Of a DNA stretch of 9,831 nucleotides, positions 5,802 to 9,831 are shown piece after piece (positions within the stretch are counted from its first letter, which is position 1; each line of letters begins with the position of its first letter). The translations under genes and the position numbers were made by a program. The notes under the pieces were generated by a model. That model ran no database searches, was not told where the DNA came from, and saw only the letters and a list, made by a program, of their open reading frames with translations. The stretch is from a virus (lineage: Duplodnaviria > Heunggongvirae > Uroviricota > Caudoviricetes). The stretch lies in the IMG/VR virus record IMGVR_UViG_2645727901_000016; one strand, given 5' to 3'.

Positions 5802-6619
5802 ATACAGGCATCTATTACGACATCAGCAACGAGGACTACCACGCCGGTGACGGCGTGAGTAAGTCACAACTGGATATGGTGGCCAAGAACCCTGCCCTTC
5901 TGAAATGGGTGAAGGCTGCTCCGGAAGATGAAGAGAAGAAATCCGCACTGGACATGGGTACTGCGCTGCACTGCCTGCTGCTTGAGCCGGATGAATTCGA
6001 TAAGCGTTTTGTGAAAGAGCCGAAAGTTGATCTTCGAACTACGAAGGGAAAAGTGGCATTAGCTGCATTCAAAGAATCAATAGATGGGATGGATATAACA
6101 CCTATTCCTGATGAGGATTGGAGAAAGCTAGGTTTGATGCACAAAAGCGCAATGGCTCACCCGGCGGCGCGCTGGATGCTGGAAGCGCCAGGCCACTGCG
6201 AAGCATCGATGTACTGGAATGACGATGAGACTGGCGAGTTGTGCCGAATACGACCTGATAAGTGGCTGAATGAACACAACGTGATCGTCGACGTGAAAAA
6301 GGTTGCAGACATGGATCGCTTTGCTCGTCACATCGAGGAATTCCGCTACCACGTGCAGGACGCCATGTACAGAGAGGGCGCACTGAAAGTAACTGGGCAG
6401 CCACACGGATTTTTCTTCCTGGCTGTGAGCGAAACCATCGACTGCGGTCGATACCCGGTCCGCGTGTTCGAACTGGATGCGCTGGATGTTGACGCCGGGC
6501 ACCAGTTATTCCGCCGGGATTTGAACACCTATCACGAGTGCCGCATCAGTGATGAATGGGGTGGCGTGGAAATTATTAAACGCCCTGAATGGGCAAGAAA
6601 ACAGGATATGTACGTATGA
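5798..6619 (+). CDS. recE: RecE-type exonuclease VIII, nuclease domain only (PD-(D/E)XK)
   Basis: GIYYDISNEDYHAG, GTALHCLLLEPDEF, CRIRPDKW, IVDVKK, FRYHVQDAMY and DCGRYPV line up with the C-terminal nuclease domain of Rac RecE as I recall it. AAGGAA Shine-Dalgarno upstream. Confidence 0.85.
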   Translation: MNTGIYYDISNEDYHAGDGVSKSQLDMVAKNPALLKWVKAAPEDEEKKSALDMGTALHCLLLEPDEFDKRFVKEPKVDLRTTKGKVALAAFKESIDGMDITPIPDEDWRKLGLMHKSAMAHPAARWMLEAPGHCEASMYWNDDETGELCRIRPDKWLNEHNVIVDVKKVADMDRFARHIEEFRYHVQDAMYREGALKVTGQPHGFFFLAVSETIDCGRYPVRVFELDALDVDAGHQLFRRDLNTYHECRISDEWGGVEIIKRPEWARKQDMYV

Positions 6620-7497
6620 GCAACGATATCGCAATCACATCACAGCCTGGCGCTACCGTAGGGACCGCTGCGGCAATCTTCAGTCCTGAGGGTATGGACC
6701 GCCTGGTGCGTTTCGCAACCCTGATGGCAGACAGTAAAGCAACCGTTCCGCAGCACCTGGCAGGAAAGCCTGCTGACTGCCTGGCGGTAACCATGCAGGC
6801 GGCGCAGTGGGGCATGAACCCGTTCGCTGTGGCCCAGAAGACGCACGTTGTAAACGGCACTCTTGGCTATGAAGCGCAGCTTGTTAACGCCGTCGTTTCG
6901 TCTTCAAACCTGCTTTCAACCCGCCTGAATTACCGCTGGGACGGCGACTGGTCAAAGGTGAATGGCAAGAGCGACAAGTCACCATCACTGACCGTAACAG
7001 TATCGGCAGTGCTGAAAGGCGAAGCAGAGCCGCGTGAACTTACCATCAGCATGGCTCAGGCCGGTGTCCGTAACTCTCCACTGTGGGAACAGGATCCACG
7101 TCAGCAACTTGCTTATCTGTGCGTTAAGCGCTGGGCGCGCCTGCATGCCCCTGATGTTCTTCTTGGTGTCTATACACCCGACGAACTGCAGGAGACAACA
7201 CCGCGTGTTGAGCGCGACATCACGCCACCTGCGGCAACGGCTCAGGGCATGAACAGCCTGATCAACTCAAAGCCTGAGCAGAAGCAGGAAGATCGTCAGC
7301 AGTACAAAGATGATCGCGGCCCTGAAGAGATTCTGCACGCATTTTCCGTAGCGGCGATGAACTACAACACTCAGGCCGAACTGGACAAAGCGTACAAATA
7401 CGTTGCTCAGAAACTGGCAGGTGATGATGACCTGCTGGCAAAAGCAACTGACGTTTACACCATCCGCTGCGACGAACTGAACGAAGTACCGATGTAA
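6616..7497 (+). CDS. recT: RecT-family single-strand annealing recombinase
   Basis: Follows recE with an ATGA overlap, in the recE-recT order seen in Rac. 293 aa. Central region (AVTMQAAQWGMNPFAVAQKTHVVNG) resembles the RecT/Bet-type core. The 6589 in-frame ATG is an alternative start. Confidence 0.8.
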   Translation: MSNDIAITSQPGATVGTAAAIFSPEGMDRLVRFATLMADSKATVPQHLAGKPADCLAVTMQAAQWGMNPFAVAQKTHVVNGTLGYEAQLVNAVVSSSNLLSTRLNYRWDGDWSKVNGKSDKSPSLTVTVSAVLKGEAEPRELTISMAQAGVRNSPLWEQDPRQQLAYLCVKRWARLHAPDVLLGVYTPDELQETTPRVERDITPPAATAQGMNSLINSKPEQKQEDRQQYKDDRGPEEILHAFSVAAMNYNTQAELDKAYKYVAQKLAGDDDLLAKATDVYTIRCDELNEVPM

Positions 7498-7543
7498 CCA
7501 CCACTGCGGCGCCGCGCGCGTCGCAAATGCAAGAGAGGTAATT

Positions 7544-7792
7544 ATGAAAAGAGCATTTGGCAAAAAGGAACTGATGGCAGTGGTGCCGGTATCTATGAGC
7601 ACCATTGATCGCATGGAGCGCAATGGCGAGTTCCCGCAGCGATTCTGGATTACTGATAAGCGTTGTGCATGGAACGCTGAAGAGGTTGAGAACTGGCTTG
7701 ATGAACGTCAGGCCACCAGCCCCGCAGAGTTCACCGGAAAAAAGCCGCCGGTTGATCAGCGCGTTTACCGCCCAGTAAGTAACGCCGCATGA
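7544..7792 (+). CDS. AlpA-family phage transcriptional regulator / excisionase-like HTH protein
   Basis: 82 aa. Motif VSMSTIDRMERNGEFPQRFWITDKRCAWNAEEVENWL fits the AlpA pattern (S.STI.R....G.FP...........W...EV..WL). AGAGAGG Shine-Dalgarno upstream. Confidence 0.7.
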   Translation: MKRAFGKKELMAVVPVSMSTIDRMERNGEFPQRFWITDKRCAWNAEEVENWLDERQATSPAEFTGKKPPVDQRVYRPVSNAA

Positions 7793-7819
7793 CAGCGCTG
7801 ATCAGGCACTGGGAAAAAT

Positions 7820-7845
7820 GGTCAGGATGGTACTTATTCCTGACC
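7820..7845 (+). terminator. hairpin (8-bp perfect inverted repeat GGTCAGGA / TCCTGACC, 10-nt loop) followed by a weak T-rich stretch; possible terminator or protein-binding palindrome
   Basis: Direct reading of 7820-7845 plus the downstream TCTGTTTCC. Located between the AlpA-like and PerC-like genes. Confidence 0.25.
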
Positions 7846-7901
7846 TCTGTTTCCGCCTGGCTGTATCTGCTGGCGGTAATTTTCATAGAAGGCTGGATCC
7901 G

Positions 7902-8201
7902 ATGAGCAAATTAACCCGTCTTGAAAAGTATCACCTGAACTATGTGTCTCAGCGTCAGGCTTCAAAGGTTGTCGCCGTAACTCCTGCGGCGATGGAGGTA
8001 GAAAAGCGCGCTGTTGAGCGAGAATCGAAAGGCCAGTTCCGCATTGCAGCCAGGCTTTGGTTGCTGTGCATGGATGCAGCAGTCGGTGAGGTTGAACGCG
8101 CAAGGATAGCGATACGCCGCGATCAGTGCATATCGAAAGGTAACGGCCTGCGCCGTGGTGAATACGCAGGGATCGGATGTCGCGGGGTGGTGTATGACTA
8201 A
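7902..8201 (+). CDS. PerC/ANR-family-like small transcriptional regulator (tentative)
   Basis: 99 aa from the ATG at 7902. Segment EVEKRAVERESKGQFRIAARLWLLCMD...RRDQCIS resembles the PerC-family core (LE.RG.YRRAA.RW ... C). The 7818 start is also in frame. Confidence 0.45.
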   Translation: MSKLTRLEKYHLNYVSQRQASKVVAVTPAAMEVEKRAVERESKGQFRIAARLWLLCMDAAVGEVERARIAIRRDQCISKGNGLRRGEYAGIGCRGVVYD

Positions 8202-8352
8202 CCCTCACGACAATATCCGCGTCGGTAGCATCACGCTGGTTTATTCATCTCTTCGTTGCGGATGGATTGTGCCAGGCAGAAAGGTTATCAAAAACCCATT
8301 AAAGGCTCAGCGCATTGCTGAGCTGATGAATAATAAGAAGGTTGCAGCATGA
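8194..8352 (+). CDS. small hypothetical protein (about 52 aa)
   Basis: ATG at 8194 overlapping the end of the PerC-like gene. Its stop overlaps the ATG of the ASCH gene (ATGA). An alternative GTG start at 8155 exists. No family recognised. Confidence 0.35.
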   Translation: MTNPHDNIRVGSITLVYSSLRCGWIVPGRKVIKNPLKAQRIAELMNNKKVAA

Positions 8353-9011
8353 AAGAGCGCGGAATGATTTTCAACGAGCACCAAGTGCGTGCCCTGCTTG
8401 ATGGCAGCATGACGCAGGTTCGTCGGCCCATAAAATGGCGTCAGACTCGGGCTACAGAAATTGCAGAACGTGAAGACGGTAGCCGGTGGCCGTGGAGTGA
8501 GGATGCTGAAAATGTGTGCGATTACTGGCATCCATGTCCATTCGGTGCAGTCGGCGATGTTATTTACGTCAGAGAGTCATTTTCACGGCTCGACGCATTT
8601 AACTTCTTCGATTCCGCCGTGCCTCATGAAGTCCCGGATTTCTGGTATTGGGCAGATGGTGATCCGGAGTGGGGAGACTGGACACGCCCACAATCTGGCG
8701 CAGTCATGCCTCGCGCCGCCAGCAGAATCAGCCTGGAGATAACCGGAATTCGCGTCGAGAGGCTTCAGAATGCCGATGAATCAAACCTCCTGAATGACCT
8801 TGGAGATATGCTAGAGCATTGCGATACCGTCGCAGGCCGCGCCTTCAACCATGCAGAGCATTATGCGATCGCAGGCGTTCCGGTTGGATTATGTCCGGAA
8901 ATGCATGGCTTTAAAGCGTGGTGGGACAAGGTTAACGGAGCTGGCAGCTTTTATTCCAACCCGTGGGTCTGGGTGATCGAGTTTAAGCGCATTGAAGGCG
9001 GTGCAGCATGA
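8349..9011 (+). CDS. ASCH (PUA-like) domain protein with insertions, 220 aa
   Basis: N-terminal FNEHQVRALLDGSMTQVRRP, GDVIYVRE, and C-terminal WVWVIEFKRI parallel E. coli YqfB (ILAGRKTITIR ... GDVLRV ... FYVIEFK) as I recall it. AAGAAGG Shine-Dalgarno 8 nt upstream. Stop overlaps the methyltransferase start. Confidence 0.65.
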   Translation: MKERGMIFNEHQVRALLDGSMTQVRRPIKWRQTRATEIAEREDGSRWPWSEDAENVCDYWHPCPFGAVGDVIYVRESFSRLDAFNFFDSAVPHEVPDFWYWADGDPEWGDWTRPQSGAVMPRAASRISLEITGIRVERLQNADESNLLNDLGDMLEHCDTVAGRAFNHAEHYAIAGVPVGLCPEMHGFKAWWDKVNGAGSFYSNPWVWVIEFKRIEGGAA

Positions 9012-9655
9012 CCGTTAAATACACACTTATCTACGCTGATCCGCCTTGGGTCTACCGCGATAAAGCCGCCGACGGCGAGCGCGGTGCCGGGTTTAAATAC
9101 CCAGTAATGAACGTGTTGGATATCTGCCGCCTGCCGGTTTGGGATCTGGCAGCCGACGATTGCCTGCTGGCTATGTGGTGGGTGCCGACGCAGCCGGTTG
9201 AGGCACTGAAGGTAGTCGAGGCGTGGGGCTTCAAGCTGATGACCATGAAGGGATTCACCTGGCACAAGACGAATAAGCACAAAGGAAACAGTGCGATCGG
9301 AATGGGCCACATGACCAGGGCGAATAGCGAAGACGTACTCTTTGCGGTACGCGGAAAACTTCCTGCACGAATGGACGCCTCTATCTGCCAGCATGTCACG
9401 GCGCCGCGCCTGGAGAACTCGCGCAAGCCGGACGTGATCAGAGAGAAACTGGTGCAGCTGCTGGGCGATGTGCCGCGCATTGAGCTTTTCGCCCGCCAGT
9501 CGTCGCATGGCTTCGATGTATGGGGAAATCAGTGCGACGGTCCGGCAGTGCAACTGCAACCTGGTTATGCACTAGATATCTCAGGAATGGCGAAGGCATT
9601 CAAAAACGCCCCGCTATCACCATCAGACAGCCAGGGACGGGAGCGTGCAGCATGA
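9008..9655 (+). CDS. MT-A70-family DNA N6-adenine methyltransferase (phage orphan methylase)
   Basis: DPPW catalytic motif at residues 11-14 (LIYADPPWVY). 215 aa. This is the typical prophage MT-A70 architecture. No restriction endonuclease gene is adjacent in the window. Confidence 0.85.
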   Translation: MTVKYTLIYADPPWVYRDKAADGERGAGFKYPVMNVLDICRLPVWDLAADDCLLAMWWVPTQPVEALKVVEAWGFKLMTMKGFTWHKTNKHKGNSAIGMGHMTRANSEDVLFAVRGKLPARMDASICQHVTAPRLENSRKPDVIREKLVQLLGDVPRIELFARQSSHGFDVWGNQCDGPAVQLQPGYALDISGMAKAFKNAPLSPSDSQGRERAA

Positions 9656-9831
9656 ATATGTTCAATGAGGCGGAGTTAATCCGCCAACTGGAAGAGCAGC
9701 GCGCTGTGATTGTGCAGAAAAGCGCGCAAGTTAACTGGCTGCAAACGGAAAATAGTGTCTTGCATAAGAAATGCGAAGAACTGCAAATGACAGTTGAACT
9801 ACAGCGAGAATTTATACAATCCAGAAATTAA
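9652..9831 (+). CDS. small coiled-coil hypothetical protein (59 aa)
   Basis: ATG at 9652 overlaps the methyltransferase stop (ATGA). Heptad-like sequence ELIRQLEEQRAVIVQ...CEELQMTVELQREF. Stop at 9829-9831, the window edge. Confidence 0.45.
   Translation: MNMFNEAELIRQLEEQRAVIVQKSAQVNWLQTENSVLHKKCEELQMTVELQREFIQSRN

Follow-up and report, generated by a model that had tools for sequence, protein, structure and literature searches.

A stand-alone MT-A70 family adenine methyltransferase, with GATC as its suggested target, in the early operon of an epsilon15-like Salmonella enterica prophage

The window analyzed here is a stretch of 9,831 nucleotides from the virus record IMGVR_UViG_2645727901_000016 (Caudoviricetes), and its subject is the open reading frame (ORF) at positions 9008-9655 of the + strand, which starts with ATG, ends with TGA and encodes a protein of 215 amino acids. 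The product is an N6-adenine methyltransferase of the MT-A70 family, encoded by a prophage: its membership in the family, the intactness of its motifs, its orphan status, its position in an operon and its conservation in a phage lineage are established here. Taking all parts together, we consider it probable, with moderate confidence, that this is a stand-alone enzyme with no restriction partner, acting on GATC, expressed from the early operon of the prophage and serving in the upkeep of GATC methylation; the specificity, the timing of expression and the biological role are the parts that we infer. The gene is of a known kind, correctly identified and ordinary: in Salmonella, E. coli and epsilon15-like phages, proteins that are identical or nearly so already carry the annotation adenine methylase or MT-A70 family methyltransferase, and orphan phage methylases are a textbook class. 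The remaining scientific point is whether enzymes of this clade act on DNA or on rRNA, together with the meaning of a variable gene slot found directly upstream of them.

A previous reading of the window, based on its letters only and indicated in the following as the sequence-only reading, had described the gene as a DPPW-bearing MT-A70 adenine methyltransferase without a restriction partner; both the identification and the orphan call are confirmed. The protein matches the PF05063 (MT-A70) profile over its full length (model positions 1-172 of 172), with E=2.4e-23 and a score of 83.4 bits, where the cut-off is 23.9. It also matches PHROG 359, "DNA methyltransferase" (1e-114), and MTase_II, the PADLOC model for type II methyltransferases (1.8e-75). 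When solved structures are searched by sequence in the PDB, the nearest are Tetrahymena MTA1 (3e-11) and METTL3 (4e-6), and the DPPW and SxKP motifs are aligned with their MTA1 counterparts. The order of the motifs is that of the beta class: DPPW, at residues 11-14, is N-terminal and precedes SRKP (138-141) and WGNQ (172-175). In an alignment with 25 homologs all family-invariant residues are kept; within DPPW, P12 and W14 never vary, and D11 and P13 hardly do. The SRKP motif presumably takes part in cofactor binding, a putative role carried over from METTL3 and MTA1. WGNQ, which closes the conserved core, also has its aligned counterpart in MTA1, and is found in all of the 37 related methylases tabulated. 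The AlphaFold2 model of the protein (pLDDT 53.5) was too poor for a fold search.

Beyond the core, methylases of the lineage described below carry one of two C-terminal tails: a long one of about 29 residues (YALDI.GM..AF.NAPLSP.DNQGRERAA), as in the window, or a short one of about 11 (C.VPVV.TEAA). The long tail is kept among enzymes that are 78-100% identical to the one studied here, which suggests that it has a function. An identical protein is found in assemblies of Salmonella enterica, and its cluster at 90% identity counts 3412 member sequences. The features of the gene and of its surroundings are reported in Table 1.

Table 1. Coordinates, in the window, of the methylase gene, its motifs and the neighboring features
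Feature	Position	Strand	Basis
MT-A70 family (beta-class) N6-adenine methyltransferase, 215 aa	9008..9655	+	ORF, Pfam PF05063, PHROG 359, PADLOC MTase_II, PDB sequence matches
Motif IV D11-P12-P13-W14, catalytic, adenine-binding	9038..9049	+	direct reading; aligned with MTA1 DPPW
S138-R139-K140-P141, MT-A70 core motif	9419..9430	+	S138, K140 and P141 invariant; aligned with MTA1 SQKP
W172-G173-N174-Q175, end of conserved catalytic core	9521..9532	+	W172 and G173 invariant; N174 nearly invariant
C-terminal tail, "long" variant YALDISGMAKAFKNAPLSPSDSQGRERAA, aa 187-215	9566..9652	+	phiPA8 gp5 homology ends at residue 187
ASCH-like (PUA-like fold) protein, 220 aa, optional insert directly upstream of the methylase	8349..9011	+	PHROG 874 (unknown function); weak fold matches
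Junction motif GCAGCATGA (Ala-Ala-stop overlapping the methylase ATG)	9003..9011	+	9-mer count
Downstream ORF, 59 aa, PHROG 4701 (unknown function), last operon gene	9652..9831	+	ORF; present in many relatives
Early-left-type operon, 12 co-directional genes	4353..9831	+	gene junctions; domain assignments

The window corresponds to positions 3-9833 of contig JHTE01000012.1 (GCA_001266335.1, Salmonella enterica), with 0 mismatches over 9831 bases (100% identity), and the contig tells what lies beyond it. Past the 59-amino acid ORF (orf59) it continues with a convergent tyrosine integrase gene of 417 codons (int), followed by the host genes guaA, guaB and xseA: a restriction partner just past the window edge, which the sequence-only reading had named as the finding that would speak against its orphan call, is thus ruled out. 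The methylase thus lies at the int-proximal end of the prophage, as the last gene but one. The operon is ordered as orf49, orf330, orf100, PD-(D/E)XK exonuclease, RecT, AlpA-like, orf38, PerC-like, DUF1317, ASCH-like, MT-A70, orf59; 9 of its 11 junctions are overlaps of 4 or 8 bases, and the other two are gaps of 7 and 46 bases. A scan of positions 7300-9831 gave no promoter or terminator around the methylase above shuffled expectation, and an Rfam scan of the window gave no matches. An adjacent cognate endonuclease, by which a type II restriction-modification system is recognized, is not present: the gene is flanked by the ASCH-like ORF, orf59, int and guaA.

Orphan status is shared by the relatives of the gene. 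No restriction endonuclease is found next to the methylase homologs, either in 40 loci from different Enterobacterales genomes carrying them or in 80 phage loci of the lineage. The 40 loci include at least three phage settings. In one, the methylase follows exonuclease, RecT, AlpA and PerC at the int-proximal end; in another it lies in the nin region, with an O-like replication gene on one side and RusA, antirepressor, DUF968 and Q on the other; in the third it is found downstream of DnaB and NinB. A nuclease partner near these homologs was looked for and rejected, the recurring genes being only those of recombination or of the nin region (RusA, NinB, DUF968, exonuclease/RecT). The lineage is represented by 80 phage contigs, with a RecT 83-100% identical to that of the window; 57 of these loci are complete, that is, they reach int. 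The RecT scan from which they derive was intended as a background control for the linkage of ASCH-like genes and methylases discussed below; as only close relatives were returned, it was reused as a survey of the lineage. Of the 57 complete loci, all but one (56) contain MT-A70: the methylase is a core gene of the lineage, and is an orphan throughout.

As to the target, which the sequence-only reading considered impossible to read from the sequence, homology to experimentally characterized relatives points to GATC. Alignment with p32 of Serratia phage BZS1 gives 41% identity (E=1e-49), and p32 is GATC-specific by experiment: in its presence, plasmid DNA of a Dam-minus host resisted MboI and could be cut by DpnI, while HinfI and Hin1II still cleaved at their sites (PMC7556043). 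Residues 1-187 are 73% identical to gp5 of phiPA8, a Shiga toxin (Stx) phage. M.EcoGV, called highly similar to gp5, is described as producing GATC methylation in vivo on overproduction (PMC10810198; PMC6602927), and similar enzymes are GATC-specific in REBASE, according to the gp5 authors (PMC10810198). M.EfaBMDam from Tn1549, which belongs to the same prokaryotic MT-A70 group, is also GATC-specific (PMC7556043). GATC is therefore our best guess for the target, and one that we hold to be somewhat more probable than not.

Some observations weigh against this assignment. The loop following the FTWHK strand (residues ~86-98) is the part of the core that diverges most from gp5, and in BZS1 p32 the same loop contains a 24-residue insertion; as this is the putative recognition loop, the specificity of the enzyme could differ from that of its relatives. 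Purified gp5, in spite of its 73% identity, is nearly inactive on DNA in vitro, Dam-minus DNA included (PMC10810198), and the GATC result for M.EcoGV comes from overexpression. DNA itself is not a certain substrate, since gp5, when bound to its partner, is reported to act on 16S rRNA. The frequency of GATC in the window (observed/expected ratio 0.89) is uninformative, and speaks neither for nor against such a target. If the target is GATC, the enzyme would be invisible in the methylomes of Dam-positive lysogens. The methylome of the lysogen, which had been suggested as a check, would probably be uninformative, because host Dam already methylates GATC and the operon is expected to be repressed in lysogens; the literature search found no methylome paper on E. 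coli E2348/69, which carries a related prophage.

The picture that we favor is that of a small stand-alone beta-class methylase, carried by an epsilon15-like prophage of Salmonella enterica that has guaA beside its integration site. Because the gene is the second to last of the early operon, the enzyme would be made, along with the exonuclease and RecT, after induction or infection, and not in the quiet lysogen. By homology, it would most likely act on double-stranded DNA, at the adenine within GATC; host Dam, an enzyme of an unrelated class, modifies this site as well. A phage GATC methylase in a Dam-positive host looks redundant, and the role suggested here draws on general knowledge, with phages P22 and lambda as its rationale: their virion DNA is incompletely methylated at Dam sites, and the host enzyme may fail to keep pace with replication (PMC8022706). 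The most likely role would thus be to keep fast-replicating phage DNA fully methylated at GATC. Full methylation could shield progeny DNA from restriction enzymes blocked by GATC methylation, or from nicking by MutH, and a methylase of its own may make the phage independent of the capacity of host Dam. The anti-restriction or epigenetic role proposed by the sequence-only reading is plausible, though unproven; the BZS1 authors remark that little is yet understood of what phage Dam-like enzymes do (PMC7556043).

Other explanations share some of the same evidence. The protein has little beyond the 172-position catalytic domain, and no separate target-recognition domain; this, together with a putative recognition loop that diverges from characterized relatives, would also suit an adenine DNA methyltransferase with relaxed or almost no specificity, like M.EcoGII or p25 from Serratia prophage OS31, providing broad protection against many restriction systems. 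Non-specific phage adenine methylases do exist (PMC7544214; PMC7556043), but they need not be relatives of this MT-A70 clade, while the characterized prokaryotic MT-A70 members (BZS1 p32, M.EfaBMDam, M.EcoGV) are all reported as GATC-specific, and p32 left HinfI and Hin1II sites unprotected (PMC7556043): a non-specific enzyme seems unlikely. Nothing specific indicates that the gene may be an inactive remnant, apart from the precedent of prophage methylases that methylome studies found silent or inactive, such as M.SenLT2IV (PMC8022706) and M.EcoGII, which is unexpressed (PMC7544214); with an intact frame, all family-invariant residues kept and the wide conservation reported above, both in the lineage and in the 90% cluster, this may be regarded as very improbable. 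A different possibility is suggested by gp5 itself, whose core is so similar to that of the methylase: the enzyme could be an RNA methyltransferase which, bound to a partner, methylates 16S rRNA in the 30S subunit and tunes spontaneous induction of the prophage. Gong et al. (2023) found gp5 alone almost inactive on both DNA and RNA; with PNB-2, encoded by the immediately preceding gene, it raised spontaneous induction and used RNA more than 13-fold better than DNA, preferring 16S rRNA and 30S subunits, and the change of DPPW to APPA abolished the induction and virulence phenotype (PMC10810198). As in the window, the gp5 gene lies towards the int end of the prophage and shares 4 bases with the gene before it. 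The partner, however, is missing here: no PNB-2 homolog was detected in the window, in the source contigs or in the 80 lineage loci (tblastn, E<=1, 85 sequences). The 220-amino acid ORF upstream of the methylase was considered as a homolog of PNB-2 or PNB-1 and rejected, as it shows no similarity to either of them, and in 38 of the 57 complete loci the upstream slot contains no gene of the ASCH-like or DndB-like kind. The ~27 C-terminal residues of the gp5 type, proposed to bind PNB-2, are not conserved, the alignment stopping at residue 187. The rRNA claim itself rests on assays of S-adenosylmethionine consumption, in which no modified base was identified, as its authors say (PMC10810198), and the literature search found no follow-up paper to it. 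We therefore hold an rRNA methyltransferase to be improbable for the gene of the window. As things stand, the published substrates of the closest studied relatives conflict, being GATC in DNA for M.EcoGV and 16S rRNA for gp5 with PNB-2.

The upstream ORF also raises the possibility that the methylase and the ASCH-like protein form a two-gene module, in which the latter would be a subunit for specificity or targeting, or would read the N6-methyladenine mark. The two genes overlap by 4 bases, which says little, since nearly all genes of the operon overlap. The ASCH-like gene is present in 16 of the 57 complete loci and, whenever found in the lineage (19 loci overall), is located directly upstream of MT-A70; the methylase, on the other hand, lacks this companion in 40 of 56 complete loci. 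The family was also searched for among diverse phage loci of IMG/VR: in 25 out of 80 that carry it an amino-methyltransferase is found within 4 kb, a figure which has no valid background control and can only be taken as a lead. Four Pfam families account for these neighbors: PF05869 Dam (10 ORFs), MT-A70 (9), N6_N4_Mtase (6 ORFs in 5 loci) and D12 (2). In two of three other contexts examined, the ASCH-like family is either set apart from the nearest methylase or lacks one within 3 kb. A linkage of ASCH to N6-adenine methylases in bacteria was reported by Iyer et al. (PMC4738411), and phiPA8 offers a precedent for an upstream partner protein. The tail of the methylase was considered as a feature that might co-vary with the upstream gene, and this was rejected: each tail type is found in loci that have the ASCH-like gene and in loci that lack it, so the tail is not specific to its presence, and the skew between the two is weak (Fisher p=0.013, not corrected for shared ancestry). 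As the methylase often lacks it, and both tails are found in either condition, the ASCH-like protein is not an obligatory partner, and a two-gene module appears quite doubtful.

The neighbors reported by the sequence-only reading are both present, the 220-amino acid ORF upstream and the 59-amino acid ORF downstream, each overlapping the methylase by 4 bases; the name "ASCH" for the former finds no match in Pfam, and has some support at the level of the fold only. At E<=10, the ORF matches nothing in Pfam, the ASCH profile included, and a sequence search of the PDB gave no match. Its AlphaFold2 model, built with 24 homologs, has a pLDDT of 74 and a disordered insert at residues 79-116. The 13 top matches of this model in the PDB, searched by Foldseek, are all ASCH proteins (PH0355, YqfB and ZmASCH among them); their probabilities are 0.54-1.0, but the E-values are weak, from 3e-3 to 0.5, and the query-normalized TM-scores reach only 0.31-0.34. 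The label thus draws some support from the predicted fold. In the diverse phage loci, the ASCH-like gene and the nearby methyltransferase are often one small gene apart.

In 2 of the 57 complete loci the slot upstream of the methylase contains a DndB-like (DGQHR) gene, which in Salmonella phage VB_ST_SPNIS2 occupies positions 3938-5005. One may speculate, attaching little probability to the idea, that the upstream slot of phage MT-A70 genes houses interchangeable nucleic-acid-binding adaptors (PNB-2 in Stx phages, ASCH-like or DndB-like proteins here), which would retarget a minimal methylase to rRNA, to particular DNA forms or to already modified DNA. Were this the case, the annotation of the whole clade as "DNA methylase" would be only partly right. 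The lineage, whose slot contains an ASCH-like gene, a DndB-like gene or neither, offers a convenient natural series for any effect of the upstream gene on the substrate.

Further observations concern the gene junctions. The motif GCAGCATGA, which marks the start of the methylase, is also found at 8344-8352, 8404-8412 and 9647-9655: four copies in all, where 0.15 would be expected. It makes up three gene junctions in a row, those around the methylase, and in 9 of 37 related loci the methylase gene ends in the same junction. GCAGCATGA may be a signal for translational coupling, and may also represent a cassette boundary or a recombination linker. In phage SPNIS2 (positions 5002-5814) the methylase and the homolog of orf59 form one continuous reading frame, with a 270-amino acid product; the fusion may be real, or may result from a frameshift in sequencing or annotation.

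Elsewhere in the window, a PerC-like transcriptional activator is encoded at 7902-8201, three genes upstream of the methylase (PHROG 868, 3e-55; Pfam PerC, 22.5 bits, with a cut-off of 22.6). Proteins of the PerC family are regulators of virulence genes in pathogenic E. coli. The 330-amino acid ORF at 4499-5491 (PHROG 1376, unknown function) has no Pfam match, and features a long, highly charged central stretch, rich in Glu, Lys, Arg and Ala. A divergent operon, on the minus strand at 738-2803, contains a weak RuvC-like match (738-1202), a replication protein with a DnaT domain (1324-2139) and a metallophosphatase (2129-2803).

Compared with known systems, the methylase is closest to those of the epsilon15-type phages. 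The adenine methylases of Salmonella phages epsilon15 and 66FD are 93% identical to the protein of the window, that of phiV10 about 80%; no experimental characterization of the epsilon15-type enzymes was found in the literature. The order recT-alpA-perC-...-MT-A70-(small ORF)-int is common to the relatives of epsilon15 (SPN1S, 66FD and phiV10, of the Uetakevirus type) and to the E. coli E2348/69 prophage. The guaA insertion site is also the same in the E. coli relatives, among them this prophage, whose gene is annotated as "MT-A70 family methyltransferase". Differences from the epsilon15-type methylases are limited to the C-terminal tail and to the optional upstream insert.

Similarities to gp5 of phiPA8 (M.EcoPA8orf6770P, 208 amino acids) comprise the DPPW motif, the size, the location near the int end of a prophage, which is lambdoid in that case, and the 4-base overlap with the upstream gene. 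Its C-terminal tail, in contrast, is unrelated to that of the window enzyme, and where phiPA8 has PNB-2, a winged-helix-like protein of 143 amino acids reported as the specificity subunit, the window has the unrelated ASCH-like protein. In Serratia phage vB_SspM_BZS1, which is temperate, phiBZS1_p32 is likewise an orphan near the integrase gene, with different flanking genes.

More distant counterparts are the ciliate enzyme MTA1/AMT1, which forms N6-methyladenine in DNA, and METTL3, which forms N6-methyladenosine in mRNA: both have the same catalytic domain with DPPW. Eukaryotic MT-A70 enzymes are heterodimers, formed with a catalytically dead paralog and joined by extra subunits; at the window locus, in contrast, no paralog is encoded. 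From the behavior of beta-class enzymes (PMC7544214), the methylase would be expected to form a homodimer. Finally, the Dam enzymes of E. coli and Salmonella, T4 Dam, the PF05869 phage Dam and M.EcoVT2Dam probably share with it the GATC target, and share the orphan status. They are alpha-class enzymes, whereas the window methylase belongs to the beta class, and no sequence relationship between them is detectable: a common specificity for GATC would be convergent, as already noted by the BZS1 authors (PMC7556043).

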